64,000 nucleotides of DNA from Candidatus Sulfotelmatobacter sp. (GCA_035503455.1 DATJTK010000175.1:2460-66459), one strand, 5' to 3'; positions 14,681 to 55,800 are shown, numbered from the stretch's first letter. The notes: a model not told the origin generated them from the sequence alone. Numbers and translations: made by a program.

Positions 14681-14759
14681 AACGTTTGTTCTATGGCTTG
14701 CTTCCATTTTTTCCTCGACGGCCATCGCACCGGCCTATGACAATAGTTTTCAACGCCCT

Positions 14760-15524: not shown

Positions 15525-15533
15525 CGTTAAACT

Positions 15534-17318: not shown

Positions 17319-17331
17319 TTTATGAACCCGC

Positions 17332-17556: not shown

Positions 17557-17625
17557 GTTCACGGACCGGTGTGCTCCCATTCCTGGATGTCGAACCATTC
17601 CATGCGTTAACAAACCGAACCCGCC

Positions 17626-26854: not shown

Positions 26855-27075
26855 TATCCCGAAGGGATAAATGGAAATAGCCCGGCGTTTCAACGCCGGG
26901 TAGGAACGAGGAAGGATACGAGTCCCGCAGGGACGGCTGAACGGAGCGTGTGGAATATGAATGATCTGGCGGGAGCCGATCAGTCGTCCCGTTCGGGACT
27001 TATGCAATTCCGAATTTTGCCCGGCATTAAAATGCCGGGCTATTTCCAATTGTCCCTTCGGGACACGAAATGCGC
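26855..27075. repeat. MITE-like element: 46-nt terminal inverted repeats (40/46), each made of two hairpins
   Basis: The left arm (26855-26900) matches the reverse complement of 27030-27075. Four of the six differences form two compensatory stem pairs (tAtccc/gggaTa vs tGtccc/gggaCa; cccggcG/Cgccggg vs cccggcA/Tgccggg). Confidence 0.75.
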
Positions 27076-27104: not shown

Positions 27105-29339
27105 TTACGGTGCCGGTGTGAGGTTGCCGGTAGAGCCTAGCGTACCCTCCGCCTGTTTCTTTCCCGCCCGGTCAAACACTACAACGTGGACATTTTTATA
27201 AATGTCATTGCCGGCGTAATTGCCCTCGGTTGTCCAACTCAATTGTCCGCTGGCGTCATTCCACTTGAACATGGTGGCGAGCATTTGTCCGTTCAAATAA
27301 TTGGTTGTCGTACCATCGTCTTCAACAAGCGTAAACGTCGCGTCTTTGCCCGGATAAATCTCCAGTTCCAGCGGACCACCGGGCATTTGGCTGGTGTGCT
27401 CAATGACCGGTCCCAACGGCAGAATGGTTCCAGCCCGGACATAGATGGGAATTTCATCCAATGCGGCTGTGACATGCATAGTTCGCCCGCCATTCACTGG
27501 GGTGTTGGATTCAAAGGGATACCATCGGCCGTGCGGAAGATAAACATCGCGCGCACCGCCGGGCTGCAAAACCGGCGCAGCCAGAAGCGACGGACCCATA
27601 AGCCATTCGTCAGACATGTTGGCCACCATCGAGTCGTTCGGAAATTCCATAATCAGCGGGCGCATGAGCGGAACACCTGTCTCGGACGTTTCGTGAGCCA
27701 GGCTGTAATAATAGGGAATCAGGCGGTAACGCAAATCGAGCGCTTTGCGGATGGCGTCCAGGGCGTCCGCGCCATAAAGCCAGGGAAACCTGGGCGTATC
27801 GTGCAATTCTGAATGGGACCGGATGACTGGGAAAAAGACGCCGGCTTCCATCCAGCGCGACAACAGTTCGGGAGTGGGATTGCCGAGGAAACCTCCGATA
27901 TCGCACGTTTCATATGGCAAGCCGGCCAGCGACCAATTCAACAGAGATGTCGGTGTCATTTGTAAAACAGACCAGGTGCTTTTGATATCTCCTGTCCATG
28001 CGGCCGCGCCCAGGCGTTGCAAACCGGGCGAAAAGGCACGGTTTAACGTCCATAACCGCGCGCCCGGGTGGTATCGCGCGAGCGCGTCTTTTTCGGTCAG
28101 GTTCCAATAATAGTACAGTGTGTATGCGGCTTCACCTTCGTCGTTCCACCAGCCGTCAACCCCGGCAGCCAGCAGCGGCGTCATTTGCGAGATATACCAT
28201 TCGCGAAAATCCGGGTTGGCAAAGTTCACATCACGCGATTCAAATTTATCCCGGCCCGTCACCCGGGCAAGGTCCCAATGATTATGTCGTATCATCGCCA
28301 GCGTGGCGGCATTGCCCATGCGCGGTTTGCGAATACCCACAAAATGCACGCCCTGGGCCTTGTACGCGGCGATTTGCTTTGCCGGCTCGGGAAAAAGCGC
28401 GGGGTTGAAGCTGAAGTCCTTGAAATCGGGCAAGCCAGACGACGGCAGAGTGTAATCAGGCGTCCTGGTGTACCATTCAAAATCGTAAATGAAGGCGTCC
28501 ACCGGCAGTTTGAATTGCTGAAATTTTGAAAGCGTATCTTCTATGTAAGCGCGATCGGCCCAGCCCCAGCGGCTTTGCAGATAACCAAACGCCCAGCGCG
28601 GCGGGACTGGGGCGCAGCCGGTCAATCGCGCATATTCTTTTGCGGCATCTTTCAAGGAGGCGGACGGCATCAGGAAAAGGCTCCCTTGTATGCCGGGAAA
28701 GGTCCATGTCACCGCGCCGCCATTTGTCGCGGCGGTCCAGTATGCAGGCCGATTGTCATCCGCCGTTACCGCGAGGACAGAGTAACCGGCATTCGACCAA
28801 TAGTAAGGAAGCACGGCCACGCCATTGCCGACATGCGTTTTTACATTGGACTGTTTGAGTGAGTTTACGCCGTTGCCGCTGCCATAGACATAGATGGGTT
28901 TATGCCCGGGCCAGCCGAGGTCGAGATTGACGGAGTCGGCTCCGTCCGTTGCATTGAAATTCCCGAGGGCATGCCGTGGAATCAATATCTTGCCGTCGCC
29001 GTTTTCCAGAGTCCATTCGCCGGTCGTCGGATTCATCAACAATTCACCGCCTGCCGTTTTAATCCCAACCATACGATGCCGTTTGACTTCATGCCAGGCG
29101 GTGAAGTTGGGATTTATAGTGTCCTTAAGAAAAGTCGAAGTCGAAATTTCCGACACGCCGTCCGGGTAGGCGTCCAATCGGAATATGTTTGTGTCAATGG
29201 CGACCAACTCCACTTGAGGTTCGCCGAGGCTAATCTTCAGACCATAGGGCAATTGTTGAACATCCTCCGGCGCGCATAAGGCGGGTAGTGCCATCGCAAC
29301 GGCGAATAAACAGATGCTGAGCGATTTCAGGAATTTCAT
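27105..29339 (-). CDS. Glycoside hydrolase family 31 (alpha-glucosidase/alpha-xylosidase type), secreted
   Basis: Signal peptide; GVDGWWNDEGE (GH31 nucleophile-region-like); IRSHSE...PRFPW. Confidence 0.85.
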   Translation of the reverse strand: MKFLKSLSICLFAVAMALPALCAPEDVQQLPYGLKISLGEPQVELVAIDTNIFRLDAYPDGVSEISTSTFLKDTINPNFTAWHEVKRHRMVGIKTAGGELLMNPTTGEWTLENGDGKILIPRHALGNFNATDGADSVNLDLGWPGHKPIYVYGSGNGVNSLKQSNVKTHVGNGVAVLPYYWSNAGYSVLAVTADDNRPAYWTAATNGGAVTWTFPGIQGSLFLMPSASLKDAAKEYARLTGCAPVPPRWAFGYLQSRWGWADRAYIEDTLSKFQQFKLPVDAFIYDFEWYTRTPDYTLPSSGLPDFKDFSFNPALFPEPAKQIAAYKAQGVHFVGIRKPRMGNAATLAMIRHNHWDLARVTGRDKFESRDVNFANPDFREWYISQMTPLLAAGVDGWWNDEGEAAYTLYYYWNLTEKDALARYHPGARLWTLNRAFSPGLQRLGAAAWTGDIKSTWSVLQMTPTSLLNWSLAGLPYETCDIGGFLGNPTPELLSRWMEAGVFFPVIRSHSELHDTPRFPWLYGADALDAIRKALDLRYRLIPYYYSLAHETSETGVPLMRPLIMEFPNDSMVANMSDEWLMGPSLLAAPVLQPGGARDVYLPHGRWYPFESNTPVNGGRTMHVTAALDEIPIYVRAGTILPLGPVIEHTSQMPGGPLELEIYPGKDATFTLVEDDGTTTNYLNGQMLATMFKWNDASGQLSWTTEGNYAGNDIYKNVHVVVFDRAGKKQAEGTLGSTGNLTPAP

Positions 29340-31639: not shown

Positions 31640-31707
31640 ACATAGTTGAATATGGGCGAAGGATTCAAGGCGTCAAAAGCGACGAATTCCAACATCGAAC
31701 CTGGTAG

Positions 31708-31727
31708 GGCGGACGTGCCCGTCCGCC
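31708..31727. repeat. Hairpin ggcggacg-tgcc-cgtccgcc
   Basis: Perfect 8-bp stem in the divergent intergenic region. A tandem (aggttcg)x3 follows at about 31765-31785. Confidence 0.5.
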
Positions 31728-31834
31728 AGGCGAGCGCCCCCGGCGGTCGCGTTTCAAAACGTTCGAGGTTCGAGGTTCGATGTTTTAATTTGCCCCTAAA
31801 CACGCTGCGGATTAGCCTCGGCGCATCAGATGCA

Positions 31835-32596
31835 ATGAATGCCGTTGTCGAGACTGTCAATCTAACCCGCGACTTCGGGTCGTTGCGGGCTGTCGATGGC
31901 TTGAATCTGCGGGTCGAGGCCGGGCAATTTTACGGATTTTTGGGTCCAAACGGCGCAGGCAAATCCACCACCATCAAAATGCTCACCGGGCTGCTCGGAC
32001 CAACGGGCGGTTCCATCCATATTCTGGGCCAGGACATGGCCAATCCCAAACTCGCGCTGGACGTGAAACGGCGCATTGGCGTGGTCCCGGAAAATCTCGC
32101 GCTTTTTGACAACCTCACCGCCAGCGAATATCTCACATTTATCGGGCGCATGTATCTGCTGCCCGCCGACGTCGTGCGCCGTCGGCGCGACGAATTGCTG
32201 GCCATGATGGAACTGCCCACGGATGGCAAGAAGGTGACGCTCGAATTCTCGCACGGCATGAAAAAGAAATTGTCGCTGGCCGCGGCGCTGATCGCCAATC
32301 CCGAACTGCTCTTTTTGGACGAGCCGTTTGAAGGCGTGGATGCTGTGGCCTCACGTGTGCTCCGCGATACACTCAGGCAATGCGTCAGCCGTGGCGCGAC
32401 CGTTTTTCTCACGTCGCACGTTTTGGAAATCGTCGAAAAACTGTGCACGGATGTCGGCATCATTGCTGGCGGCCGGCTGGTCCATCAGGGCACAATGGAG
32501 GAATTGCGGCGCGACGGCTCTTCATTGGAAGACAAATTTCTCGCCGTGGTCGGTGAAGCGGGACATGAAAGTCAAAAACTAAGCTGGCTCGAATGA
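31835..32596 (+). CDS. ABC transporter ATP-binding protein (ABC-2/DrrA-like)
   Basis: Walker A GPNGAGKST, signature-like FSHGMKKKLSLA, Walker B LLFLDEPFEGVD. I prefer the ATG at 31835 (MNAVVETVNLTRDFG). Confidence 0.9.
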   Translation: MNAVVETVNLTRDFGSLRAVDGLNLRVEAGQFYGFLGPNGAGKSTTIKMLTGLLGPTGGSIHILGQDMANPKLALDVKRRIGVVPENLALFDNLTASEYLTFIGRMYLLPADVVRRRRDELLAMMELPTDGKKVTLEFSHGMKKKLSLAAALIANPELLFLDEPFEGVDAVASRVLRDTLRQCVSRGATVFLTSHVLEIVEKLCTDVGIIAGGRLVHQGTMEELRRDGSSLEDKFLAVVGEAGHESQKLSWLE

Positions 32597-34317
32597 ATTG
32601 GGAACAGATCAAAACCATTCTCTGGCTGCGTTGGCGGCTCATCTGCAATCAATCGCGGCGCAGTCACGGATTGGGGCTGGCGGTTTCCATTCTCATTGGC
32701 GTTGGCGCCGTCTTTTTCTCGTTAGGTTCATTCATTGGCGGTTTTTTCGGCGGGATGCTGGGACTGGGCGGCGCATCGCCAACCGCCATCTGGCTGACGT
32801 GGCTTATCTTTACTTTCGCGTTTCTTTTTTTCTGGGTGATCGGCCTGGTCACCGAACTGCAGCGTTCGGAAACCATTGATTTGCAAAAATTGATGCATCT
32901 GCCGGTTGCGCTGGGCCAGTTGTTCTTCATCAATTTTCTAGTGTCCCACTTTACCCTGAGCATCATCGTTGCCGTGCCGGCGATGCTCGGCCTGGGACTT
33001 GGACTGGCCATCGGGCGCGGCTTTGAAATGCTTCTTTTGATCCCGCTCGCCGCCAGCATGATTTTTATGATTTCGGCGTGGACCTATTGTTTCCGGGGCT
33101 GGATCGCCCAATTGATGACGAATCCGCGACGGCGTCGCACGGTCATCATGTGCCTCACCTTAGCGGTGGTTCTTCTGGGACAGGGGCCAAACTTGTATTT
33201 CAATGTTTTCGGCCGTTACCATCGTCATTCAGACCAAATGAGCCCCGGCGCGCAGACCCAGCTCATGGACCGTCTTCTGGTCGCGGAAGAATACATTCCG
33301 CCACTGTGGCTTCCGTGCGGCGCCCGCCCGCTGGCCATGGGCAACCCGGTGCCGGCTCTCCTGGGAACTCTCGGTTGTCTTGCCATTGGCGCGCTTGGCC
33401 TGCGCCGCGCTTATCGCAGCACTATCCGTTTTTATCACGGCGAAATTGGCGGCAAAGCAGCCGCAAAAATCAAAATTCCGGGCGGCAAAGCAATGGCTGC
33501 GCCCGGGACGAATCAAAATGCCGGCTTGCTTGAACTGCGCCTGCCGTATGTTCCCGAACAAGCCGCCGCGCTGGCATTGGCCACGTTTCGCTCAATGTTG
33601 CGCGCGCCGGAAGTAAAAATGGCATTGGCCGCCGTGTTCATCCTCCCCGTGATTGCCGCGGCCACGTTTGTTTTTCGCGGTCCCGCGCATATTCCCGAGG
33701 GCTTGAAAGCATTTGCGGCCACCGGCGCGGCCGTATTGCCCACGTTAATGTTAATCCAATTCCTCGCAAACCAGTTCGGTTACGATCGCGATGGGTTCCG
33801 TGCCCTGATGCTTTCCCCGGCGGACAGGCGCTTTATCCTGCTTGGCAAAAACCTGGCCTGTCTGCCCGTCGGCATTTTTCCCGGCTTTCTTTTGCTCGGG
33901 TTGATTTGCATTCCGCTTCGGTTGTCGCCGCTGACCGTTATCGCCACGTTGTTTCAACTCTTAACGCTGTTCCTCACCGTCAGCACGGTGGGAAACCTGA
34001 TCTCGATCCTCGCCCCGCAACACATCGTGCCGGGCTCATTGCGTCCGACCAGGCCAAAACTCCAAATCGTTCTGTTGATGCTGGCCCTGCAAATGATTTT
34101 GATGGCGGCCATGACCCCGATATTTTTGCCTGCGCTTTCGGAATTGGTGTGGCGCAGCAACAGCCTGCCGGATTTAGTTCCGGTGAACCTCATTCTTTCC
34201 GTAGCTCTCTGTGCTGTCATGGTCCTGGTTTATTGGCAAACGCTCAATCCCCTGAGCCGTCTGCTGCAAAAACGCGAAACCAAAATCCTGGAAAGCGTGA
34301 CCGCAGAAGTGGAATGA
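32593..34317 (+). CDS. Polytopic ABC exporter permease (putative ABC-exporter family)
   Basis: ATGA overlap with the ATPase gene. At least 10 hydrophobic segments. Basic N-terminus WLRWRLICNQSRR. Confidence 0.8.
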   Translation: MNWEQIKTILWLRWRLICNQSRRSHGLGLAVSILIGVGAVFFSLGSFIGGFFGGMLGLGGASPTAIWLTWLIFTFAFLFFWVIGLVTELQRSETIDLQKLMHLPVALGQLFFINFLVSHFTLSIIVAVPAMLGLGLGLAIGRGFEMLLLIPLAASMIFMISAWTYCFRGWIAQLMTNPRRRRTVIMCLTLAVVLLGQGPNLYFNVFGRYHRHSDQMSPGAQTQLMDRLLVAEEYIPPLWLPCGARPLAMGNPVPALLGTLGCLAIGALGLRRAYRSTIRFYHGEIGGKAAAKIKIPGGKAMAAPGTNQNAGLLELRLPYVPEQAAALALATFRSMLRAPEVKMALAAVFILPVIAAATFVFRGPAHIPEGLKAFAATGAAVLPTLMLIQFLANQFGYDRDGFRALMLSPADRRFILLGKNLACLPVGIFPGFLLLGLICIPLRLSPLTVIATLFQLLTLFLTVSTVGNLISILAPQHIVPGSLRPTRPKLQIVLLMLALQMILMAAMTPIFLPALSELVWRSNSLPDLVPVNLILSVALCAVMVLVYWQTLNPLSRLLQKRETKILESVTAEVE

Positions 34318-34331
34318 GTCGCTTTTTTAGC

Positions 34332-34907
34332 CGTCTTTTACGCGGATGGCATTGGCGACGCTGCCCTCCATCTCCGCAGGAGAGCGCAATACTTGTAGTA
34401 AAAGGTCCCCCAAAAGATTTCCCAAAAAATGAAATCGAAAAATTTCTGTCCCTAAATCCCCGCGCCAACATTGAACTTTTTTGGGGTTCCAAATGTAGTT
34501 CTTGTGCTGCCCCGTACATCTGAGAAATTCGAATTGTATCAAAGTCAAAATATGGAAACGGAGAATTCATCAGACGCCGGGCTATTCCTCAAGATCCTCA
34601 CCCTTGTATCCCTTGCGTCCCTCACGTTGCGTATGCCGTTTATGGCACTCATGGTACTCATGGCACTCGTGGCACTCACAACTCCCCTGCAATTGTCCCC
34701 ACATTCCGCCTTGATGGGGGGACAGTTCGCTGAAACGCCTTCAAAAACCCATATTTTATGTCCATCTCTTACGCCGATGGCATTGGCCAGGCCGTTTTTT
34801 TCGGTGATTTGGAGCGCTTTTGGCGAAAAAACCGTGTTTAAAATTCATTTTTTTGACCATCGAAAGGGACAATTCCTGCTTTGCCAATGCCAATGGCGTA
34901 AAAGACG
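34332..34907. repeat. AT-rich ~0.58-kb segment bounded by 27-nt inverted repeats (23/27), with a third direct copy inside
   Basis: cgtcttttacgcggatggcattggcga (34332-58). Its reverse-complement match is at 34881-34907. A direct copy catctcttacgccgatggcattggcca is at 34763-89. The core is a tandem (A)TTGGC hexamer. Confidence 0.7.
34601..34677 (+). repeat. Two adjoining 9-bp-period arrays: (CCCTNNNGT)x3 at 34601-27 and (ATGGCACTC)x4 at 34642-77
   Basis: Read directly: cccttgtat cccttgcgt ccctcacgt ... atggcactc atggtactc atggcactc gtggcactc. Confidence 0.8.
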
Positions 34908-34991
34908 TCTGTATTATTTTGTTCTGTTTAGGTGACACTGCATATTCCGGACAAATGGTGACAGTAATAGGTCTTTTTTCGGAAAAATCTC

Positions 34992-35020
34992 TAGACTCTT
35001 GCGCAGCCGCAAGTGATAAT
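34992..35020 (+). promoter_or_regulatory. Candidate promoter for the NRPS gene (TAGACT-17 nt-GATAAT)
   Basis: Pattern match only, about 50 nt upstream of the ATG at 35073. AAGGA lies 9 nt before the ATG as a likely RBS. Confidence 0.25.
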
Positions 35021-35072
35021 CATGATACTCAATTCGGAAGTTTTTTTAGGTTTACCCTAAGGATATTCGTAA

Positions 35073-36587
35073 ATGGGACCTGAAGCGCAAACAATATTAA
35101 GCTTAATTGATTGGAAAGCTGGTTCCGAGCCTGATCGGCCATTCCTGATCAGCCCGGAGACGGAGCGCGTGCTTACCTTCAAGGGATTGCAACAGCAGGC
35201 GGCAAAGTTGTGCGCACAGTTACGGCAACTGGGTCTGGCTCCGGGCGACAAGGTTGCGTTCCTTCTGGATAACGGTTTGTTCACGGCTGAACTATTCCTT
35301 GGCACGATGTACGGGGGTTTTGTGTCGGTCCCGCTTAATGTCCGCGCCGGCGCCTCTCAATTGGCCTACACCCTGGATCATTCGGATGCGAAAGTCGTGT
35401 TTGCGGGCGGTGAATACCAGAACCTGGTCAAGGAAATCCTGGTTCACGTTCCACGGTCGATAACGGTCATTCCTTGCGACGCCGACAATGGCCCTGTAAA
35501 TCTGCCTGAATCAGCCGCCAAAGAAGAAGCGCCGCCGATTAAACCGGAGGACGTCGCGCTATTGATGTACACTTCCGGCAGCACGGGCCAGCCAAAAGGA
35601 GGGGTCCATACCCACAAATCGTTGTTTGCCCATGGCCGGAATTCTGTTTTGGCTCACAAACTGACGGCCGCGGACCGGTCTCTTTTGGTTCTTCCCCTGT
35701 ATCACATCAACGCGGAATGTGTGACTCTGGTCCCGACGCTCCTCAGCGGCGGCTCGATTGTCGTGCCGCATCACTTCAACGCCAGCCGGTTTTGGGATTG
35801 GATGGATGACCATCGCTGCACATGGTCGGCCATGGTGCCGACGATTGTCTCGCAACTCCTGGACTGGAAAGATCCAAAGGCGGGCAGCCGCGCCGCCGCG
35901 TTCAAACGCATCCGCTTTTTGCGCTCCTCTTCAGCGCCGCTTTCGCCGTCGCTGCACCGGGAATTTCTGGACAAATTCAAGTTGCCTCTCATCCAGGCCA
36001 TGGGATGCACGGAATTGGGCAACGTCTTCTCAAATCCGGTTCCCCCGGGCACGAACAAAATTGGTTCGCCGGGTTTGCCCTGGGGCATCGAAGCCAGGAT
36101 CGTCAATCGCGACGGTGTTCAGGTGCCCGATGGAGAGCCCGGAGAGATATTGCTGCGCGGGGACGCCATGATGCAGGGTTATTACAAAGATCCGGTGGGA
36201 ACGGCTGCGGCCGTGGACGCAGACGGCTGGCTGCACACGGGCGATTTGGCGTATCGGGACCCGGACGGTTACTTTTTTGTCGTTGGCCGCTCGAAGGAAT
36301 TAATCATCAAAGGCGGAATGAATATCGCGCCGCGCCAGATCGATGAAGTTCTGGAGGCGCATCCGGCTGTGTTGGAAGCAGCGGCTGTGGGTGTTCCCGA
36401 CCGGTATGTGGGGGAAGACGTCGTGGCTTTTGCCGTCCTGCGGGAGGGAATGAGGTGCGAGGAAAAGGAACTGCTTCAATTTTGCGAGGGCCGTTTGGGC
36501 CACTTTAAGACGCCCACGCGCATTTATTTTGTCCAGGATCTCCCCAAAGGCCCCTCCGGAAAGGTCCAGCGGCTGCGCTTGGTCGAA
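35073..36587 (+). other. NRPS domain A1: ANL-superfamily carboxylic-acid-type adenylation domain
   Basis: LMYTSGSTGQPKGG; LPLYHINAE in place of an FDxS motif; GCTELG; TGDLAYRDPDGYFFVVGRSKELIIKGGMNIAPRQIDE; PSGK (Lys497, 36561-63). Confidence 0.8.
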
Positions 36588-39500
36588 GAGGCCGCCAAGC
36601 CGGGGCTTGCGAGGTCAGGTTCCTTGGCTGAAAAACCCGGAACCCCCGCCGTCAACGGCCACGCACAGCCAAGCGGGGCCCATTCGTCTGAGCTTCCGGT
36701 CGAACAAATCATTGCCGGCATTTGGTCTGAGCTTCTGACGCAGCCCAAAATTGATATTCAGAGCAATTTCTTCGCGTTGGGGGGCTATTCATTGCTGGCC
36801 ATTCAATGCCTCTCGCGTCTGCGCGAAAAAATTCCTGTCACATTATCGCTTTCAGACTTTTTTGAGAATGCAACGGTCACGCAACTGGCGGCACTGGCGC
36901 GGAAAAGGTTGTCCGAGTCTCCGGGGCAGGATGGCGGCGGCGCGATGGCCCTTGATGTGCCGCCGATTCCATTGCGCGATCGCAGTGTTGCCTGTCCGTT
37001 GAGCCCTGCCCAGGAAAGTCTTTGGTTCATGGAGCAACTGGCGCCGGAGGCGCTGGCCTATAACGAATCTGAGGCCGTGCGTTTGACCGGCAGTCTCGAC
37101 GTTGAAGCGCTTGAGCACGGGCTCAATATCATCGTCGCGCGCCACGAAATTCTTCGGACGACCATCCGGACAACCAGGGGAAAACCTGCGTGTGTCGTTC
37201 ACGAGAATTGGTCCCTGAAATTGAAGCGCATCAGCCTGGAACATTTGCCTCGTGAACAGCGCGACGCCGAGGTGGAGCGATTGCTCATCGAAGAGCCGCG
37301 CGGCCGGTATAATCTCCAATCCGAGCCGGGAATTCGCGCGACACTGATCAAACTTGCGGACAACGAGCATGTTTTCATCCTGATGATGCATCACATTATT
37401 TGTGACTGGTCTTCGGAAGGCGTACTTTGGCGCGAGTTGTCGGCGTCATATCGCGACCTGATTCACGGCAAAGCGCCCATATTGCCGCCGCTGGCCATTC
37501 AACACGGGGACTATGCAGTCTGGCAAAGACAGGTAATGGAGGAGGGCGCCTACGCGGAGGATTTGGGATATTGGGAAAAGACCCTTCGGGGAGCGCCCGG
37601 CTTATTGGAACTGCCGGCCGATCGTCCCCGGCCCGCCACGATTACTTATCGTGGCGCTCGAAAACGTTTTCGAATCGGAGCAGAATTAGTGCAGGCATTG
37701 CGCGAATGCAGCCGGCGTGAAAAAACCAGCTTATTTACCCTGTTTACCGCCGCGCTTGATTGTTTGTTTTACCGGTACACGGGCAGCAATGATATTTCGT
37801 TAGGCATTCCGATGGCGGACCGGGACCGCAAGGAATTGCAATCGATTATCGGCTTCCTGCTTCGAGTCCACGTTTTGCGAACACAGCTTTCCGGGGAAAT
37901 GACGTTCAAGGAATTGGTGGCCCGGGTCCAGAAAGGCGTTTTGGATTTGTACGCTCATCGTTCTCCTCCATTTGATCAAGTTGTCAGCCGCGTCAAGCCC
38001 GAGCGCAACCCGAGCTATTCTCCTTTGTTCCAGGTGATGATGAACTGGCGCGACCGCGACCAGCAATTGACATTTATCGGCATCGACGGGCTGGCGGTCG
38101 AATCTCTTCTGGCAGAAACCAGGACCTCGAAATTCGATCTGACGTTCATGCTGACCGATGATGAGGATGAGATTTGGCTGGAAATGGAGTACAGCACCGA
38201 TCTGTTTGACCCGGACCGGATCGAGCGCATGGTTGGCCATTACCGGACCATCCTGCGCGAGGCGGCAGCCAATCCTGACCGGCGTCTCGTTGACCTGCCG
38301 ATGTTGCCCGAATCGGAGCGCCATCAAATCCTCGTGGAATGGAACCGCACACAAGTGGAATATTCCAGGGACAAGTGCCTCCACCAATTGATTGAAGAGC
38401 AAGCCCGCCGGACGCCGGAAGCGATTGCCTTGCGGTTTGAAGGCGCGGCATTGACCTACGGCGAGTTGAACACGCGCGCGAACCAGTTGGCACGGCATTT
38501 ACGGGACCTGGGAGTTGGGCCGGACGTTTTAGTGGGTGTATGCGTGGAACGCTCGCTGGAGATGGTTGTGGGGTTGCTGGGCATTCTTAAGGCCGGCGGG
38601 GCTTATTTGCCTTTGGACCCGGAATATCCGAAGGAACGAATTGAATTTGTCCTTCAAGACGCTCAAACGGCCGTTTTGCTGACGCAACAGCATTTGTCGG
38701 CTTTGGCCGCCGGAAGCAAAGCGCAGATTTTTTGCCTGGATTCCGATTGGCCGAAAGTCGCTGACCAGGAACAGTCGGACCTCGCAAACACGCCGAAGCC
38801 GCAGAACCTGGCCTATGTGATTTATACCTCCGGCTCGACAGGGAAACCCAAAGGCGTACAAATTCCACATAGCGCGGCAGTCAACTTCATGCAGTCGATG
38901 GCCAAAAAACCGGGCTTCACGGCGCAGGACACGATTCTCGCGGTGACCACGCTGTCGTTTGACATTGCCGGCCTGGAGCTATGGCTGCCGCTGAGTTTGG
39001 GCGGCCAGTCCGTTATTGCCAGGCGCGACACGACCCGGGATGGTGAAGCGTTGGCCCAATTGTTGGAGAGCTGTGGCGCAACTGTCATGCAGGCGACACC
39101 GAGCACGTGGCAGGTGTTGTTGACCAGCGGCTGGCGCGGCGCGCCGAATCTCAAAATATTGTGCGGCGGCGAGGCCTGGTCGAAAGAACTGGCGGAGCAA
39201 TTGCTTAAAAAATGCGCTTCTCTTTGGAACATGTATGGGCCGACGGAAACGACCATTTGGTCCGCAGCCTGCAAAGTGGAAAGCGGCGATGGTGTATTTG
39301 TTGGAAGACCCATCGATAACACGCAGATCTATATATTGGACAAGCAACTGCAGCCGGCGCCCGCAGGTCAGCCGGGAGAATTGCACATTGGCGGCACGGG
39401 ACTGGCACGAGGCTATCATAACCGTCCGGAGTTAACCGCGGAAAAATTTATAGCGGATCCATTCTCGAAGGAGCCCGGGGCGCGGCTTTATAAAACCGGC

Positions 39501-41009
39501 GATTCGGCGCGCTTTCTGCCGGATGGCAACATCGAGTATCTCGGACGACTGGATTATCAGGTGAAGATTCGCGGTTTCCGGGTGGAGCTGGCAGAAATTG
39601 AGGAAGTATTGAATCAACATCCCGGAGTACAAACGAGCGTCGTGATAGCGCGCGAGGATTCACCGGGCGCAAAACGGCTGGTGGCGTATTTCGTGAGCCG
39701 AACGGAAGCTGTCAACACCGCAACGTTGCGAGACTATTTGCGCGACAAATTGCCCGGCTACATGGTGCCGGCGGCGTTTGTCGCCCTGCAGGCGTTTCCA
39801 TTGACTCCAAACGGCAAGGTGGATCGCAAGGCCCTGCCGGCGCCGGATTCGGCGAAAGCCGAATTGGACGCGGAGCGAAAAGCGCCGCAGAGCTATACCG
39901 AGCAGGTGTTGTGTCATATTTGGCGTGAATGGCTCAATTTGAAAGCGGTGGGAATACGAGACAACTTCTTTGACCTGGGCGGCGATTCCCTGACGGCCAT
40001 CCGGATCATTGAACAAATGAACCGAACGTTCAAGGTGCATCTAAATGTCCCGGTCTTTTTTCACAACCCAACGATAGAAGGGGTGGCCCGTGTCCTGGAG
40101 CAGGAGCATAATATCCGTCCGGAACCTCAATTGGTTCCGTTGCACGCGGGAGATTCCGCCGGGTCGCTGTTTTTGCTCGAAGCGGGATTGGGCATGGGAC
40201 TGTGCCGGCTGGTCGAGTCATTTCATGGCGGCCCGGCCACGTTTGCAACCGTAGCGCCGCTGTCTCCGAAGGCCTATCAGGCGGCAATGCACAACCGTGT
40301 CACAGATTATCCGAGCCTGGAAGAGATCGCTGCCCCGCACACCGCGCTGATCCGGAGCCGCTATTCGAGTCCGTGCTGGCTCATCGGCCATTGCGTGGGC
40401 GGGCTCCTGGCTTTCGAGGTGGCGCGACAGCTTCAGAATGAAGGGAAGCCCGTTGAATTGATTTTCCTGCTCGATTCCTGGGCCAGGCTTCCATCACTGA
40501 GCGTATGGGACCGGTTGCGGCGCATAGTAACGGACGGTGCTGGAAATACCCTAAAACGGAGGGCAAAACGATTTTGGAAAGAGGCGCTCTCCCAACCGGC
40601 AAACGTGAATGGCAAACAACATGGAACCGACTCGCCGAATGGCGGCGAACCGGAAACGCTCAACCTCCTGGATCCCCTGGTCATTGGGAAAATTTTCAGA
40701 CATGTTCGCCAGATTCACCAAATCACGCCATTGCAAAGCCACGCTCTTTTATTTCGTCCTCGCGAACTCGCGCCGGATCGCAAATTTTTCTATGAAATGG
40801 ACGGCGCGATGGGATGGACCGGCTCCTTCACTGGCGGAATGGAAATCATGGACTGCCCCGGAGACCATTTGACCATGCTCAAAGCGCCGCACCTGCAATT
40901 TTTGGCTGAACAGATCTGGCAAAGGATCCGACAAAATACCCCATCGACACGGTCCACGAAGCCAAACGGGGCCAGCCAGGACCAGCAGCCAAAGCCGGCC
41001 CTTCGATAA
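35073..41009 (+). CDS. Non-ribosomal peptide synthetase, 1978 aa: acyl-AMP-ligase-like A - T - C - A - T - TE
   Basis: Core motifs were read in order; see the domain sub-features below. Confidence 0.95.
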   Translation: MGPEAQTILSLIDWKAGSEPDRPFLISPETERVLTFKGLQQQAAKLCAQLRQLGLAPGDKVAFLLDNGLFTAELFLGTMYGGFVSVPLNVRAGASQLAYTLDHSDAKVVFAGGEYQNLVKEILVHVPRSITVIPCDADNGPVNLPESAAKEEAPPIKPEDVALLMYTSGSTGQPKGGVHTHKSLFAHGRNSVLAHKLTAADRSLLVLPLYHINAECVTLVPTLLSGGSIVVPHHFNASRFWDWMDDHRCTWSAMVPTIVSQLLDWKDPKAGSRAAAFKRIRFLRSSSAPLSPSLHREFLDKFKLPLIQAMGCTELGNVFSNPVPPGTNKIGSPGLPWGIEARIVNRDGVQVPDGEPGEILLRGDAMMQGYYKDPVGTAAAVDADGWLHTGDLAYRDPDGYFFVVGRSKELIIKGGMNIAPRQIDEVLEAHPAVLEAAAVGVPDRYVGEDVVAFAVLREGMRCEEKELLQFCEGRLGHFKTPTRIYFVQDLPKGPSGKVQRLRLVEEAAKPGLARSGSLAEKPGTPAVNGHAQPSGAHSSELPVEQIIAGIWSELLTQPKIDIQSNFFALGGYSLLAIQCLSRLREKIPVTLSLSDFFENATVTQLAALARKRLSESPGQDGGGAMALDVPPIPLRDRSVACPLSPAQESLWFMEQLAPEALAYNESEAVRLTGSLDVEALEHGLNIIVARHEILRTTIRTTRGKPACVVHENWSLKLKRISLEHLPREQRDAEVERLLIEEPRGRYNLQSEPGIRATLIKLADNEHVFILMMHHIICDWSSEGVLWRELSASYRDLIHGKAPILPPLAIQHGDYAVWQRQVMEEGAYAEDLGYWEKTLRGAPGLLELPADRPRPATITYRGARKRFRIGAELVQALRECSRREKTSLFTLFTAALDCLFYRYTGSNDISLGIPMADRDRKELQSIIGFLLRVHVLRTQLSGEMTFKELVARVQKGVLDLYAHRSPPFDQVVSRVKPERNPSYSPLFQVMMNWRDRDQQLTFIGIDGLAVESLLAETRTSKFDLTFMLTDDEDEIWLEMEYSTDLFDPDRIERMVGHYRTILREAAANPDRRLVDLPMLPESERHQILVEWNRTQVEYSRDKCLHQLIEEQARRTPEAIALRFEGAALTYGELNTRANQLARHLRDLGVGPDVLVGVCVERSLEMVVGLLGILKAGGAYLPLDPEYPKERIEFVLQDAQTAVLLTQQHLSALAAGSKAQIFCLDSDWPKVADQEQSDLANTPKPQNLAYVIYTSGSTGKPKGVQIPHSAAVNFMQSMAKKPGFTAQDTILAVTTLSFDIAGLELWLPLSLGGQSVIARRDTTRDGEALAQLLESCGATVMQATPSTWQVLLTSGWRGAPNLKILCGGEAWSKELAEQLLKKCASLWNMYGPTETTIWSAACKVESGDGVFVGRPIDNTQIYILDKQLQPAPAGQPGELHIGGTGLARGYHNRPELTAEKFIADPFSKEPGARLYKTGDSARFLPDGNIEYLGRLDYQVKIRGFRVELAEIEEVLNQHPGVQTSVVIAREDSPGAKRLVAYFVSRTEAVNTATLRDYLRDKLPGYMVPAAFVALQAFPLTPNGKVDRKALPAPDSAKAELDAERKAPQSYTEQVLCHIWREWLNLKAVGIRDNFFDLGGDSLTAIRIIEQMNRTFKVHLNVPVFFHNPTIEGVARVLEQEHNIRPEPQLVPLHAGDSAGSLFLLEAGLGMGLCRLVESFHGGPATFATVAPLSPKAYQAAMHNRVTDYPSLEEIAAPHTALIRSRYSSPCWLIGHCVGGLLAFEVARQLQNEGKPVELIFLLDSWARLPSLSVWDRLRRIVTDGAGNTLKRRAKRFWKEALSQPANVNGKQHGTDSPNGGEPETLNLLDPLVIGKIFRHVRQIHQITPLQSHALLFRPRELAPDRKFFYEMDGAMGWTGSFTGGMEIMDCPGDHLTMLKAPHLQFLAEQIWQRIRQNTPSTRSTKPNGASQDQQPKPALR
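36696..36920 (+). other. NRPS carrier domain T1 (Ser573 at 36789-36791)
   Basis: FFALGGYSLLAIQCLSRL. Reads GGYS rather than the usual GG(H/D)S. Confidence 0.8.
36990..38300 (+). other. NRPS condensation domain
   Basis: SPAQESLWFMEQ (C1), ARHEILRTT (C2), MHHIICDWSS (C3; HHxxxDW at 37389-37409). Confidence 0.85.
38340..39842 (+). other. NRPS domain A2: amino-acid adenylation domain, glycine-like specificity code
   Basis: LAYVIYTSGSTGKPKGV; SFDIAGLE (Asp1297, 38961-63); NMYGPTETTIW; GELHIGGTGLARGY; YKTGD; GRLDYQVKIRGFRVELAEIE; PNGKVDRK (Lys1582). Confidence 0.85.
39900..40112 (+). other. NRPS carrier domain T2 (Ser1639 at 39987-39989)
   Basis: FFDLGGDSLTAIRIIEQM. Confidence 0.85.
40125..41009 (+). 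other. NRPS thioesterase domain with Cys at the nucleophile elbow (GHCVGG)
   Basis: WLIGHCVGGLLAFEVARQL (Cys1774, TGC at 40392-94); LLDS; CPGDHLTML (His1932 at 40866-68). Confidence 0.75.
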
Positions 41010-41033
41010 CGCCGGGAATTCGGCACCGGCAAA

Positions 41034-41744
41034 ATGCGCCAATCGAATTTACTGTGGGCACCGCCTTCGCATGAATGGCCATTGGCGGAAATGGACATCC
41101 ACGTTTGGGCAGCCGGGCTGGATCCATCGCCGGAACGCGTTTCTGCCTTTAAGGAAACACTGGCTCCCGATGAACTGGAACGGGCGGCGCGATTTCATTT
41201 TGAGATCGATCGCAACCGGTTTATCGCCGGACGGGGCATTCTTAGGGAAATATTAGGCTCGTACCTGGGAATTCGTCCGGAGCGCCTGCAGTTTGATTAC
41301 AGCCCGCATGGCAAGCCGACGTTGAAGGCCAGTTCGACGCGCCCGCCACTTCATTTTAATCTCGGTCATTCGGTGGATTTAATTTTGATTGCGGTGACAC
41401 GAGCTTGCCCCCTTGGCATCGACGTCGAATGGGTCCGCCCAATACCGGATTTGGAAAATATTGCGACGCGATATTTTTCGACGCGCGAGGCGGCCGAACT
41501 TATGGCCCTGCCAGAAGAGCGGCGACCACGTGCATTTTATCAGCTTTGGACCCGCAAAGAAGCCTGCCTCAAAGCAAGCGGGGAAGGACTTTCAGGACTG
41601 GCAGGCCTGCAAATTCCCGATCATTCCAAATTGACCGATTCCCGGACGCTCGTTGAATTCACCCCTGCCCGGGATTTTATTGGCGCTATCGCGGCTCCAG
41701 CCGGTGGCTTGACCGTTTCCTGCTGGAGCTGGCCGTCCCATTGA
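41034..41744 (+). CDS. Sfp-type 4'-phosphopantetheinyl transferase
   Basis: GKPTL...FNLGHS, PLGIDVE and WTRKEACLKASGEG motifs. Starts 24 nt after the NRPS stop. Confidence 0.88.
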   Translation: MRQSNLLWAPPSHEWPLAEMDIHVWAAGLDPSPERVSAFKETLAPDELERAARFHFEIDRNRFIAGRGILREILGSYLGIRPERLQFDYSPHGKPTLKASSTRPPLHFNLGHSVDLILIAVTRACPLGIDVEWVRPIPDLENIATRYFSTREAAELMALPEERRPRAFYQLWTRKEACLKASGEGLSGLAGLQIPDHSKLTDSRTLVEFTPARDFIGAIAAPAGGLTVSCWSWPSH

Positions 41745-41935: not shown

Positions 41936-42007
41936 CCTTTCGTTGAGCATAAGATTGGGCCATGGACAATCCCTATGCCCGCTCAACAACAAATCAGGAG
42001 CAGCGTC

Positions 42008-44923
42008 ATGAAGAACCTATTTCAGAAGATATTTACCGTCCTGGCGGTTCTCGCCAGTGTCCACCAGACCAATGCCGCCGTCTCGTTCACCATCACGCCG
42101 ACGGCCATCAGCAATACCTACAACGGCATCATCACCCTGCAAATTACCGGCCTGTCCGACGGCGATACCGTGGTGGTGCGGAAATTTTTGGATGCGAATA
42201 CGAATGGCGTGGTGGATGCCGGCGACATCTTATGGCAGGAATTTCAAATGACGGACGGACAGGCCAGTGTTTTCACCAACGGAACCACGTCTATAACCAA
42301 TTTTAACGTGGCAAGCGATACCGACGGTTCGGCCAATGGCGCCATCACGGCGAAGTTGATTCCCGCCCAGGACTTTGCCCAATTGGTGGTTGGAAAGTAT
42401 CTTTTCGAGCTTTGGAGTCCGGCGGGCCATTTTACTCCCATCACAAATACTTTCGCCGTCACCAATTTCCCCTTTGCCCAATCCGTTTCCGGCAACGTGG
42501 TCAACAACGGAACCAATGTGCCGAATGCGGTAGTGTTTTTATTCCAACCCACCCCTGGTGGCGGCCAGAATCCGCAGTATGGGGCCGTGGCAAACAATTC
42601 CGGGGCCTATAGAGTTGCCGCCCCGACCGGTGCTTACCTGCTTGCCGCTATTAAGACGAATTTCGTGGCAAACCTGAACGCCTCGCCCAACGTCGTTTTA
42701 AACACGGGCACAACTATTACCACGAACGTGCCGCTCACGAATGCCACCGAAAGCATTTCCGGAAGTGTCGTTGACGCGAGTTCAGACGCCGGCGTTGCCG
42801 GATACCTTGTGCCCCTGGAATCGGACGATGGTCTTTTGGCAGTAGCGTTTACGGACACCAACGGCAATTTCGGTGCGGGAGTCACCAGCGATCATTGGAA
42901 AGTGGACAATAATAGCGATAGCCTGTTGATCAAAGGTTATCTTACGGTCCAAAACAACATCAATGTGAATACCACCACCGGCAGTGTTTCAGGTGTGACG
43001 GAAAGTTTAACCAAAGAAACGGCGGTATTTTACGGGACAGTTGAAGATCCTTCGGGAAACCCCCTGACTGGCGTGAATGTATATACCGCCGATAATAATG
43101 ACCTGTATCAGTCGGATGGCGTTGCATTCACAAACGGGTATTACGTGGCGAGCGCTGTTGGCGGCGGCGGCGACCTGTGGCAGGTCCAGTATGACCAGCG
43201 CGGCCCGGCCAACTACATTTATTCACAGCCGGCAATCGATCAAAACAACGGCACCAATATTAACGCGGGCCAGGCAATTCAGGTGAATCTCACCGGTGTT
43301 CTGGCGACCAATGAGATCACCGGGACCGTGTATTTTGACGGCAGCCCGGTTGCCGGTGTCGGCGTTTATGCCAGCGCCACAACCAACGACGTCAACTTCA
43401 ACAACTACGTCGATACCGCGGACGACGGGACCTACTCGTTGAACGTCGCCAATGGCGCCTGGACTGTCGGTGTAAATTGCAACGGCGGCAGTGACAGCCT
43501 TGAGAACATCATCGGCAGCGGCTTCGATTGCCCAAATAGTGTCACGGTCGGCGTTAATAACAGCAACGTGGTTGTCAATTTCACAGTGCCGCCGGTGGGA
43601 AGTGACGATGAATTCTACGGCTATGTGTCTGACAGTAACGGCAACCCTATTGCCGGCGTCGACGTCTATGCGTCTGACGGCTCAGCCACTTACACAAATA
43701 CAACCGACTCGACCGGCTACTATTCTTTTTTCGTGACGGATGGGGATTGGGAACTCAGTGTGAATTGCGGGCAGTTACAGGCAAAGAACCCGAATTACCA
43801 ATGTACCGGCACTGAAGAGACTTACATTTGCTGTGGCGATTCCAGCGAACTGGATTTTGTGATTCCGATAGATGGCGCCAGCGGTTACTTTAGGTATTCG
43901 GAGGCGAATAACGAGGTCACCATTACCAGCTACACTGGCCCCGGCGGCGCCGTTTCGATTCCGGGCGCCATTAACAGCCTGCCGGTCACCACCATCGGGT
44001 ATGATGCCCTTGGCAGCAGCAGTGTGACCGGGGTCACAATCCCCGACAGCGTCACAATCATCGAACAGTACGCGTTCGAGGATGCTTCTCTCTCCTCCGT
44101 GATCATCCCCAACAGCGTGACATACATTGGAGATTCTGCCTTTGCATACTGCTACGATCTCGCCAGCATTACCCTCGGAACAAACGTTGCCACAATTGGA
44201 GACTCGGCTTTTTACTCTTGCTCCAGCCTGGCAACCATCACGATTCCCGCCAGCGCCACGACTGTTTACAACGACGCATTTATCGGCTGCAGCAGCCTGT
44301 CGGCGATAAATGCAGCTTCAGGCAACCCGGCTTACGCCAGTGTTGGCGGCGTTTTATTTAACAACAGTCTGACGTCTCTTCTTATATACCCGGAGGGCAA
44401 CCCCGCGACGACATACACTGTTCCTGCCGGCGTTACGAGCATCGGGGCCAATGCGTTCTATTCCTGCGATTCGTTGGTCAGCGTCACGATTGGCGGCGGT
44501 GTGAATTCGATCGGGCCTGCCGCATTTGCGTACGCGAGCCTGGCCAGTCTCTATTTCCTGGGCAGCGCGCCTGCCACCGATCCAACTGCTTTCGAGGGAA
44601 ACAATGATAGTGGTTACATCGACGCGACGATTTATTATCTGCAGGGAGCCACGGGCTGGACCTCGCCGTTTCAGGGGCTTCCCGCTGTGATGCTTTCGGA
44701 ACAACAATCCGGTGTGCCTCAACTGGTCCTCATTCCCTATAGCGGAAATGCCATCCTGACGTGGCCGACAAATGACACTGGTTTTGCCCTGCAATCCTCG
44801 ACCAATCTCGCTCGTCCATCTGAATGGATTAACGTGTCCCTGTCCCCGATCATCATTGGCGGCCAGAACGTTATAATAGTTCCCGCGTCCGGCCGGCAGC
44901 AGTTCTTCCGCCTGAAACACTAA
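42008..44923 (+). CDS. Large secreted protein: Ig/CarboxypepD_reg-like repeats + BspA-type leucine-rich repeats + C-terminal ...QQFFRLKH domain
   Basis: Signal peptide MKNLFQKIFTVLAVLASVHQTNA. Repeats of GxVxDxxGNPxxGVxVY. LRR units IP.SVT.IG..AF..C..L.S.TI occur about 8 times. I prefer the ATG at 42008. Confidence 0.85.
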   Translation: MKNLFQKIFTVLAVLASVHQTNAAVSFTITPTAISNTYNGIITLQITGLSDGDTVVVRKFLDANTNGVVDAGDILWQEFQMTDGQASVFTNGTTSITNFNVASDTDGSANGAITAKLIPAQDFAQLVVGKYLFELWSPAGHFTPITNTFAVTNFPFAQSVSGNVVNNGTNVPNAVVFLFQPTPGGGQNPQYGAVANNSGAYRVAAPTGAYLLAAIKTNFVANLNASPNVVLNTGTTITTNVPLTNATESISGSVVDASSDAGVAGYLVPLESDDGLLAVAFTDTNGNFGAGVTSDHWKVDNNSDSLLIKGYLTVQNNINVNTTTGSVSGVTESLTKETAVFYGTVEDPSGNPLTGVNVYTADNNDLYQSDGVAFTNGYYVASAVGGGGDLWQVQYDQRGPANYIYSQPAIDQNNGTNINAGQAIQVNLTGVLATNEITGTVYFDGSPVAGVGVYASATTNDVNFNNYVDTADDGTYSLNVANGAWTVGVNCNGGSDSLENIIGSGFDCPNSVTVGVNNSNVVVNFTVPPVGSDDEFYGYVSDSNGNPIAGVDVYASDGSATYTNTTDSTGYYSFFVTDGDWELSVNCGQLQAKNPNYQCTGTEETYICCGDSSELDFVIPIDGASGYFRYSEANNEVTITSYTGPGGAVSIPGAINSLPVTTIGYDALGSSSVTGVTIPDSVTIIEQYAFEDASLSSVIIPNSVTYIGDSAFAYCYDLASITLGTNVATIGDSAFYSCSSLATITIPASATTVYNDAFIGCSSLSAINAASGNPAYASVGGVLFNNSLTSLLIYPEGNPATTYTVPAGVTSIGANAFYSCDSLVSVTIGGGVNSIGPAAFAYASLASLYFLGSAPATDPTAFEGNNDSGYIDATIYYLQGATGWTSPFQGLPAVMLSEQQSGVPQLVLIPYSGNAILTWPTNDTGFALQSSTNLARPSEWINVSLSPIIIGGQNVIIVPASGRQQFFRLKH

Positions 44924-45320
44924 CCGGCAAATCGTCGGACGTTGTTTGTCAAGAGGTGCTGGAAAAATTTAACAAACTTTTTTTCTTGAGAATTTTTCCG
45001 CGCGGGACGATATAGGAGGCAGAAAGTGATTCGCTCTTTGGCTCTTTGGACAAGTTGAACTTGAATTTCCCTACCCTGTTCGTGATTTGCAACAGTCCTT
45101 GAACCGTAGTTAAACGAATCCCGGGATGAGTTGCGGCGGTGGCCGACATGCCTTGACTGGAAGCCGAAAGCCGTTGCGCGAGTCCCACATGTTGTAAAAC
45201 ATGTTCAAAGGATTATCGTTGTACACGGCAAGGGTGGGGTTTTTTTTCTATATCATCCTCATCCTCAAAGCGATTTAAACCGCTTCAACGTCTCCGCCAA
45301 TTGCGTAGTGTCTTAAATTG

Positions 45321-47038: not shown

Positions 47039-47662
47039 ATGCAAATGAACACTGACCAACAGGCGCAAAAAAACGAATTGCGTGTCAAGATCCGCGCGAT
47101 AGTCAAAAGCTTGTCGCCCGAAAAACGCAAATCGGACTCTGAAAAGCTCTGCGCCCTGCTCAAGACGCAGCCGTTTTTCCAATCTGCGCGCTCAATTTTA
47201 TTTTTCGCCCCTTTGCCGGAGGAGCCCAACCTGTGGCCGCTTCTGAATGAGACACTGGCCGGAAAGAAATTGGTGGCCCTTCCGTGTTTCGACGCGGATA
47301 GCCAGGTCTATCAGCCCCGCCGTATCGCGGATTTACACGTCGAAATTTTGTCCGGAAAATTCGGCATACGCGAACCTGTGGAAACCTGCCTTGCCATTCC
47401 TCCGAATGAATTGGATTTGGTCCTGGCTCCCGGCGTGGCTTTTGGATTGGACGGACATCGGCTGGGCCGGGGAAAGGGATACTACGATCGCCTGCTGCAA
47501 AACTTTTCAGGAATGAAAGTTGGTATCGCCTTTGACGAACAAGTTGTCGAAGCAGTCCCGTCCGAACCCAATGACGTGAGGATGGATGTAATATTGACGC
47601 CCACGCGAAGTGTTATGTTATCTATGGGGCGCCGCACTCATGCAAAAATCCAGACGAGGTAA
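47039..47662 (+). CDS. 5-formyltetrahydrofolate cyclo-ligase
   Basis: LR..IRA....LSPEKR; FFAPLPEEPN; GFGLDGHRLGRGKGYYDR; DVRMDVILTP. ATG at 47039, just past the repeat. Confidence 0.85.
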   Translation: MQMNTDQQAQKNELRVKIRAIVKSLSPEKRKSDSEKLCALLKTQPFFQSARSILFFAPLPEEPNLWPLLNETLAGKKLVALPCFDADSQVYQPRRIADLHVEILSGKFGIREPVETCLAIPPNELDLVLAPGVAFGLDGHRLGRGKGYYDRLLQNFSGMKVGIAFDEQVVEAVPSEPNDVRMDVILTPTRSVMLSMGRRTHAKIQTR

Positions 47663-55691: not shown

Positions 55692-55800
55692 ACCCTTTGC
55701 GCATCCCCGCTTTATCCCCGCTTTTTCACCCTTGCCGGTTGTAGCGGAATCGCTACTATCCAACCCCATCGCCGCAGAACTCATAGGCACACAAAAATTT

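Follow-up and report, generated by a model that had tools for sequence, protein, structure and literature searches.

A 64,000-nt stretch of DNA deposited as Candidatus Sulfotelmatobacter sp. (GCA_035503455.1, DATJTK010000175.1:2460-66459), referred to here in its entirety as the window, carries at positions 35,073 to 41,744 a gene for a nonribosomal peptide synthetase (NRPS) and, directly behind it, a gene for a 4'-phosphopantetheinyl transferase (PPTase). We read the pair, with some confidence, as a working two-module NRPS and its priming enzyme, which together would yield an N-acylglycine, with a small hydroxy-dicarboxylic acid as its probable acyl group.

The synthetase gene and its priming enzyme

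The NRPS gene is one open reading frame (ORF), from ATG to stop, on the plus strand at 35073..41009. Its product of 1978 amino acids, to which all residue numbers below refer, has the order A1-T1-C-A2-T2-TE according to Pfam and NCBIfam, where A denotes adenylation, T carrier, C condensation and TE thioesterase domains. A1 (residues 13-497; 35109..36563) is an adenylation domain of the ANL type that resembles acyl-CoA synthetases and matches AMP-binding and AMP-binding_C. It is followed by the T1 carrier (residues 546-608; 36708..36896), recognized by PP-binding (E 1.8e-12) and by motif invariance, with its phosphopantetheine site at Ser573 (GGYS), and by the condensation domain (residues 641-1087; 36993..38333), with HHIICD at 773-778. 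The second module comprises the amino-acid adenylation domain A2 (residues 1108-1582; 38394..39818), which again matches AMP-binding and AMP-binding_C and carries the GrsA-numbered code DILQLGMIWK, the T2 carrier (residues 1612-1674; 39906..40094; PP-binding E 1.2e-16), with Ser1639 in GGDS, and a TE of approximately residues 1700-1950 (40170..40922), with Cys1774 (GHCVGG), Asp1801 and His1932. All six domains lie on the plus strand.

Searched as a whole, the protein gave two matches each to AMP-binding (E 7.7e-171), AMP-binding_C and PP-binding, one to Condensation over residues 641-1087 (E 6e-92, and 2e-93 for the isolated piece) and a partial match to Thioesterase over residues 1741-1805 (E 5e-13). 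Cut into six pieces, it returned all six domains separately. The domain order and the legible core motifs proposed in an earlier reading of the sequence (the original prediction) were thus borne out by the Pfam models, each domain being recovered from its own piece with its catalytic motif intact. Both A10 lysines, K497 in A1 and K1582 in A2, are conserved in relatives, and His773, His774 and Asp778 of the condensation domain are kept in all 73 full-length relatives. Directly after this Asp, in the motif HHxxxDW (37389-37409, residues 773-779), Trp replaces the usual Gly, as it does in 58 of 73 family members. By its adenylation core motifs, GGxS carriers, HHxxxD motif and TE triad, the protein is a type I modular NRPS. 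Curated named NRPS models of NCBIfam (AusA, SolG, MxcG, EntF and others) all stayed far under their cut-offs, with 730 bits against 2500 for AusA and 551 against 2400 for EntF.

The NRPS stop codon (TAA, 41007-41009) and the ATG of the PPTase gene (41034) are separated by 24 nt, exactly as predicted. The PPTase gene (41034..41744, plus strand) encodes a 236-aa protein of the Sfp/HetI type with two lobes, matched by ACPS and AASDHPPT_N (PF01648 and PF22624). Its score against the HetI model of NCBIfam is 219 bits, with a cut-off of 370, and the enzyme is best classed as HetI-like, below equivalog level. The GC content of the NRPS gene (0.55-0.585) is like that of the rest of the window, and a chance ORF is ruled out for the pair. 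Annotation of the neighbours by Pfam and NCBIfam placed no tailoring gene next to the NRPS, as previously stated, and the minimal product suggested then, one amino acid N-acylated by the acid of A1, holds as an interpretation on the domain evidence.

Substrate selection and release

The A2 code was read against the GrsA-PheA sequence, in which the canonical positions gave the expected DAWTIAAICK. Pairwise MAFFT alignment with GrsA misplaced positions 299 and 301 (DILQLSMIWK); anchoring on the GGE motif gave DILQLGMIWK. This string, more generally DILQLG[LM]IWK, is the classical specificity code for glycine. The 116-residue specificity core of A2 has its best solved match in AB3403 (4zxh; E 4.8e-30; code DILQLGVVWK), which was crystallized with glycine and prefers it, and its second-best in 5u89, presumably DhbF's glycine module. 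For the C-A-T stretch, the best solved match is LgrA residues 783-1800, presumably the glycine module of that protein. A2 is accordingly predicted to select glycine; the original prediction had left its single amino acid unnamed, and the code together with the AB3403 and 5u89 matches now supplies the name.

Across the family, DILQLGMIWK is common to 45 of the 73 full-length relatives and a glycine-like code is present in about 65 of them, with alanine (DLFNNALTYK), valine (DAFWLGGTFK) and serine-like codes in the minority. Loci with serine-like codes (DVWHxSL...) include L028, L042, L045 and L055, where the NRPS gene begins near position 10001 of the locus, and four of five such members have a Cys thioesterase; for serine-code members of this kind an N-acyl-serine beta-lactone is chemically conceivable.

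For A1, the nearest solved relatives are three oxalate-CoA ligases (267, 264 and 245 bits; 5ie0 and 6qjz at 2e-78), with lower scores for feruloyl-CoA synthetase, FadD13, 4-coumarate ligases and malonyl-CoA synthetase. Residues 6-502 are collinear with residues 4-505 of the oxalate-CoA ligase AtAAE3, with gaps of only 1-3 residues. The hallmark of fatty acyl-AMP ligases (FAALs) is a stretch of about 20 inserted residues that prevents the CoA-binding conformation, and the alignment with AtAAE3 contains no large insertion, which rules out a FAAL. The earlier designation of A1 as a carboxylic-acid ANL domain of the acyl-AMP-ligase kind therefore stands as regards an ANL domain that loads an acid; the domain is, however, acyl-CoA-synthetase-like. 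NCBIfam models run on A1 alone gave none above cut-off, and so no name.

The oxalate pocket of AtAAE3 is formed by Val215, His216, Cys288, Ser289, Ala313, Met314, His319 and Lys500, and conservation of the pair Ser289 and His319 has been described as exclusive to oxalyl-CoA synthetases (PMC8905533). Mapped through the alignment, the A1 pocket reads I212 N213 S286 S287 G311 C312 N317 K497, so that the equivalents of Ser289 and Lys500 are kept, His216 and His319 are both replaced by Asn, Ala313 by Gly and Met314 by Cys or Ser. A1 thus shares with the oxalate-CoA ligases (AtAAE3, 5IE0-5IE3; LsOCS, 6QJZ; yeast Pcs60, 8AFF) collinearity over about 500 residues and the Ser289 and Lys500 equivalents, which contact oxalate; these enzymes, however, stand alone and make a CoA thioester, whereas A1 is fused to a carrier and has Asn in place of both histidines. 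An oxalate-CoA ligase was ruled out, since His319 corresponds to Asn317 in 71 of 73 relatives and the domain is joined in cis to T1. We infer a small, polar pocket that is roomier than the oxalate pocket and unlike a fatty-acid tunnel.

These pocket positions are almost invariant across the 73 full-length relatives, and in the 34 intact locus proteins INSSG[S/C]NK is invariant (34/34) regardless of the amino acid of A2. Because the A1 pocket hardly varies with the choice made by A2, a single acid appears to serve the entire family.

The TE aligns with those of Vlm2, AB3403 and EntF. Judged from sequence spacing, Asp1801 lies at +27 from Cys1774, as in EntF and AB3403. Of the 73 relatives, 47 have Ser and 24 have Cys as nucleophile, while Asp1801 is kept in 70 and His1932 in 69; the closest relative, P0003, has Ser. 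The Cys nucleophile noted originally is therefore not a defining trait, as about two thirds of the relatives have Ser. Given a glycine substrate and a family in which Ser and Cys are freely interchanged, plain hydrolysis would be the simplest mode of release.

Relatives, their neighbours and the surroundings of the window

An exact look-up of the window NRPS in a collection of 15 billion proteins found no entry. Its closest full-length relative, P0003, shares 64% identity over 99% of the query, and the same architecture recurs, at 52-64% identity, in over 70 cluster representatives with lengths of 1900-2030 aa. Other family forms measure about 1700 aa and lack the TE, or reach at least 3000 aa. 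Several genomes have the TE-less gene followed by further NRPS genes. At L050, L052, L056 and L075 the order is a gene resembling 2-isopropylmalate synthase (IPMS), a TE-less NRPS of about 1730 aa, then NRPS genes of about 1540 and 600-680 aa. Some Acidobacteriaceae seem to extend the acyl-Gly unit into a longer peptide.

Scanning the A1-T1 alignment against one genome per GTDB species identified 173 relatives in at least six phyla. Carriers belong to Acidobacteriota, Alphaproteobacteria (Acidocella, Methylocapsa and Xanthobacteraceae), Verrucomicrobiae, Planctomycetota, Binataceae and Actinomycetota. Nearly all come from metagenome-assembled genomes (MAGs) from peat, bog or soil, the one isolate being Terracidiphilus gabretensis S55, for which the name Occallatibacter gabretensis has recently been proposed. 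The window A1 is 62-73% identical to those of five relatives and 55-74% identical to GTDB matches of several phyla. Relatives about 70-74% identical to it span five phyla, which suggests that the family has spread horizontally under strong constraint. The window NRPS is thus a member of a large cross-phylum family with no characterized representative found, and its logic is that of a canonical NRPS.

Neighbouring genes were surveyed at 85 loci (79 taken from GTDB, 5 obtained by metagenome look-ups, plus the window) by crude ORF calling and BLASTP clustering; the set holds a few duplicates of one contig, and some NRPS genes in long-read MAGs are frameshifted. The strongest association was with an HMGL-like (DRE-TIM) 2-alkylmalate synthase, found within 10 kb in 27 of the 85 loci and strictly adjacent in 23. 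Three subtypes were distinguished. The first, at about 20 loci including T. gabretensis and one Verrucomicrobia MAG, is an IPMS-like protein of about 400 aa without the C-terminal regulatory domain; it scores 564-590 bits with the NCBIfam 2-isopropylmalate synthase model (cut-off 532), and its best solved relative is the IPMS of Neisseria. The second, in Acidocella and others, is a full-length citramalate synthase (569 bits, cut-off 450), and the third, at two loci, is truncated and resembles Leptospira CimA. A PrpD/MmgE-like protein is encoded directly upstream at four further loci.

Polysaccharide genes are also frequent. At least one such family lies within 10 kb at 47 of the 85 loci and at least three at 22, among them GT4, UDP-glucose dehydrogenase, Wzx, Wzz, a priming sugar transferase, an AAA_22 ATPase and heptose genes, along with an amidotransferase-like protein of the XrtA/PEP-CTERM type; GT4 is the immediate neighbour at only five. 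An ATP-grasp gene occurs in several related loci. A PPTase gene lies within 10 kb at 11 loci, six of the Sfp/HetI type (the window included) and five of the EntD type.

In the window, the NRPS gene is preceded by a 755-bp spacer (34318..35072) that is richer in AT than its surroundings (GC 0.48 against about 0.55). It contains three copies of the 19-nt sequence TTACGCSGATGGCATTGGC, at 34338 (+), 34769 (+) and 34883 (-), two direct and one inverted; the sequence occurs nowhere else in the window, and the chance expectation is 0.08 copies. A tandem array of four to five 9-nt units, ATGGCACTC, which contain TGGCAC, occupies 34633-34677, and one weak sigma-70-like site lies at 34992-35020. The spacer probably carries a promoter or operator. 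A riboswitch, including the glycine riboswitch, is unsupported, as an Rfam search of the spacer with E up to 1 gave no match. Further upstream lie genes for an ABC ATPase of the DrrA type (31646-32596) and a polytopic membrane protein of 574 aa (32593-34317). Neither of these genes, nor the spacer repeats, recurs at the 84 related loci, and the 574-aa protein is not homologous to the 553-aa protein encoded after the NRPS of the closest relative; we therefore do not count the ABC pair or the repeats as part of the system. The AT-rich, repeat-bearing spacer described originally is indeed present, but its proposed association with the NRPS, like that of the ABC exporter, finds no support in conservation.

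The wider surroundings are those of housekeeping and carbohydrate-use genes. Upstream are a GH31 gene (27105-29339, minus strand) and a gene for a 765-aa, secreted-looking protein without a name. Just downstream of the GH31 gene, two Acido-Lenti-1 RNA motifs (26855-26900, minus; 27020-27065, plus) score 42.6 and 41.9 bits against an Rfam gathering threshold of 37; they stand in opposite orientation about 120 nt apart, in an otherwise verrucomicrobial-looking contig. Downstream of the PPTase gene the order is a BspA-LRR protein, 6S RNA, RarA and a fucosidase. The first of these (982 aa; 41975-44923, plus), a secreted protein that combines CarboxypepD_reg with BspA-type leucine-rich repeats (LRR), starts 230 nt after the PPTase gene and is not conserved near related NRPS genes. 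The 6S (SsrS) RNA (45065-45244, plus) is full length (59.6 bits, E 2.7e-09) and lies between this gene and a rarA/mgsA-like gene. Elsewhere, genes for fucose utilization (two GH29 alpha-L-fucosidases, L-fucose isomerase and an MFS transporter) occupy 13183-18906 and 47610-49466, a GH3-CBM6 gene lies at 55732-58476, and MoaE, the large subunit of molybdopterin synthase, is fused to a complete MoeA in one ORF (9317-11053, plus). RpoD and PEPCK (phosphoenolpyruvate carboxykinase) are also encoded.

RpoD (669-2444, plus) shares 100% identity with a protein from an NCBI MAG that bears the label Candidatus Sulfotelmatobacter sp. (Acidobacteriota), and its next relatives are from Verrucomicrobiae (90%) and Limisphaerales (83%). 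The window is most likely verrucomicrobial and its label a binning artefact or mislabel, in keeping with the Verrucomicrobiota-like host guessed in the original prediction.

Proposed product and competing explanations

From the domains, motifs, glycine-type code and family-wide conservation described above, we infer each chemical step of the following route. The PPTase would place phosphopantetheine on Ser573 of T1 and Ser1639 of T2. A1 would adenylate a carboxylic acid, supplied in the window's genome by primary metabolism, and load it onto T1 as a thioester on phosphopantetheine, not on CoA, and A2 would activate glycine and load T2. The condensation domain, through His773 and His774, would form the amide to give acyl-Gly-S-T2; the TE (Cys1774-Asp1801-His1932) would then take over the chain and free the N-acylglycine, most simply by hydrolysis. 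That this NRPS makes an N-acylglycine we regard as very likely.

The identity of the acid is more tentative. Three independent recruitments of alkylmalate synthases, together with a polar A1 that resembles dicarboxylate ligases, lead us to propose a 2-alkylmalate-type small acid (citramalate or isopropylmalate), not a fatty acid, as a plausible candidate that falls short of a probable one.

Two known systems offer precedents. In the cystargolide cluster an IPMS homologue accompanies adenylating enzymes and an ATP-grasp ligase; its deletion left production unaffected, and the authors suggested that the housekeeping IPMS may complement the lost homologue (PMC10776993). The same complementation would explain a window without an alkylmalate synthase of its own. 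As in the related loci, the cystargolide and belactosin pathways (CysA, an IPMS homologue; CysC and CysF, adenylating enzymes; CysD, ATP-grasp) have recruited an alkylmalate synthase beside ANL enzymes, which turn isopropylmalate carboxyls into amides. They differ in that the cystargolide ligases stand alone, explicitly with no NRPS, whereas the ANL domain of the window sits inside one, and in that the window has no IPMS homologue, methyltransferase or esterase. In Burkholderia gladioli, bolagladin biosynthesis has recruited the citrate synthase BolR to a type II NRPS (PMC7756705), which sets a precedent for a Claisen-type synthase of primary metabolism that provides an NRPS with a polycarboxylate starter. 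BolR, however, belongs to a synthase family other than the DRE-TIM alkylmalate synthases; the citrate in that pathway serves as primer for a fatty acid, and its assembly line is far larger.

Several observations weigh against this proposal. Most of the directly neighbouring IPMS-like genes retain, at the positions of Ser216 and Pro252, the residues typical of true IPMS, and others are citramalate synthases; because the neighbouring synthases differ in this way, an invariant A1 pocket must fit one synthase product or something else. The substrate of the alkylmalate synthase could instead be an acyl group bound to T1, or the enzyme could belong to a different step. A tblastn search of the 64 kb of the window with the alkylmalate synthase, PrpD-like, AsnB-like and GT4 proteins of related loci gave no match, so that the assignment of the acid draws on other genomes. 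The literature search found no characterized member of this NRPS family. The top NCBIfam hit of A1 is a subfamily model of long-chain-fatty-acid--CoA ligase (409 bits, cut-off 476). Finally, the TE could release its chain by transfer to an acceptor instead of hydrolysis.

The last but one of these points bears on the best surviving alternative, in which A1 loads a medium- or long-chain fatty acid and the product is an N-fatty-acylglycine, a lipoamino acid serving as surfactant or signal. The system would then amount to the Acinetobacter baumannii A1S_0112-0119 pathway in fused form (AB3403/A1S_0115, PDB 4ZXH and 4ZXI; acinetin 505), whose stand-alone ligase and acyl carrier protein (ACP) work with such a module and yield Ac-505, which contains acyl-Gly. 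That operon, like the window, combines an ANL ligase and a carrier with C-A(Gly)-T-TE and with a PPTase; the codes, DILQLGVVWK in AB3403 and DILQLGMIWK in the window, are almost identical, and both TEs have a Cys nucleophile (GWCFGG in AB3403) with Asp at +27. In the operon, however, ligase and ACP are separate, whereas the window has the ligase and first carrier fused to the NRPS, and the acyl-CoA dehydrogenase, RND exporter and porin-like gene of the operon have no counterpart among the annotated neighbours in the window. Overall, AB3403 (603 bits) is no more similar than other NRPS modules are. The chain in Ac-505 is C15 and hydroxylated, whereas A1 looks like a ligase of small acids. Although the best NCBIfam models of A1 are fatty-acid-CoA ligase subfamilies, none reaches its cut-off; the nearest solved relatives are oxalate-CoA ligases, the FAAL insertion is missing, the pocket presents Asn, Ser, Ser, Cys/Ser and Asn instead of Gly or hydrophobic residues, and what adjoins the NRPS in related loci is a gene for an alkylmalate synthase or PrpD, with neither fatty-acid genes nor one for an acyl-CoA dehydrogenase. 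We consider a fatty-acid substrate unlikely.

Somewhat less probable still is that the TE or a downstream ligase puts the acyl-glycyl unit on a sugar or polysaccharide, so that the family would decorate exopolysaccharide. The polysaccharide genes near 47 loci, at least three families deep at 22, speak for it. Such neighbours are absent, however, around the window NRPS and at the other Verrucomicrobia-like loci L001, L002 and L005; GT4 rarely adjoins the NRPS directly, polysaccharide genes are abundant in Acidobacteriota and give a high background rate, and no acceptor-binding domain is evident.

A cyclizing release by the Cys TE, to a beta-lactone, morpholinedione or oxazolone, appears improbable. 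The comparison is with ObiF of obafluorin biosynthesis, which shares with the window a GxCxG nucleophile motif (here GHCVGG) in a terminal NRPS TE, and for an alpha-hydroxy acyl-Gly thioester, cyclization to the six-membered morpholine-2,5-dione is conceivable in principle. In the beta-lactone-forming TE of ObiF the Asp is found on strand 6, and Gly takes up the strand-5 position (PMC6668435), whereas the window has Asp at +27 as in EntF and AB3403. The substrate of ObiF is a beta-hydroxy amino acid; A2 is predicted to select glycine, which has no beta-hydroxyl, and Ser stands for Cys in most relatives, P0003 among them. A beta-lactone TE of the ObiF type was ruled out on the position of Asp and the glycine substrate, despite the GxCxG cysteine.

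That the NRPS gene is an inactive relic without a product, as its isolation among housekeeping and carbohydrate-use genes might hint, is very improbable, and a pseudogene was rejected, given an unbroken 5.9-kb ORF with all catalytic motifs intact, a PPTase gene coupled 24 nt downstream, a GC content like that of its surroundings and A1 identities maintained across several phyla.

Returning to the N-acylglycine with a small hydroxy-dicarboxylic acyl group, a wider and more speculative proposal extends it to the family. Its members may make undescribed N-(2-alkylmalyl)- or N-(citramalyl)-amino acids, mostly of glycine, which at least six phyla of bacteria from peat and acid soil would share through horizontal transfer and which could bind metals (Fe or Al) as hydroxycarboxylates or decorate exopolysaccharide with charged groups, with feedback-insensitive alkylmalate synthases recruited repeatedly and independently. 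We regard this as a possibility still somewhat weaker than the assignment of the acid itself.

Since the enzymology is that of a canonical NRPS, the value of the system would lie in its product and the ecological role of that product rather than in mechanistic novelty. The recurrent pairing with three kinds of alkylmalate synthase provides a concrete, testable substrate hypothesis, and T. gabretensis S55 is one cultured carrier open to genetics. If the reading is correct, the gene pair would be the founding example of a widespread, strongly conserved family of two-module NRPSs in bacteria of peat and acid soil, with an unusual small polar acid as starter in place of a fatty or aryl acid.

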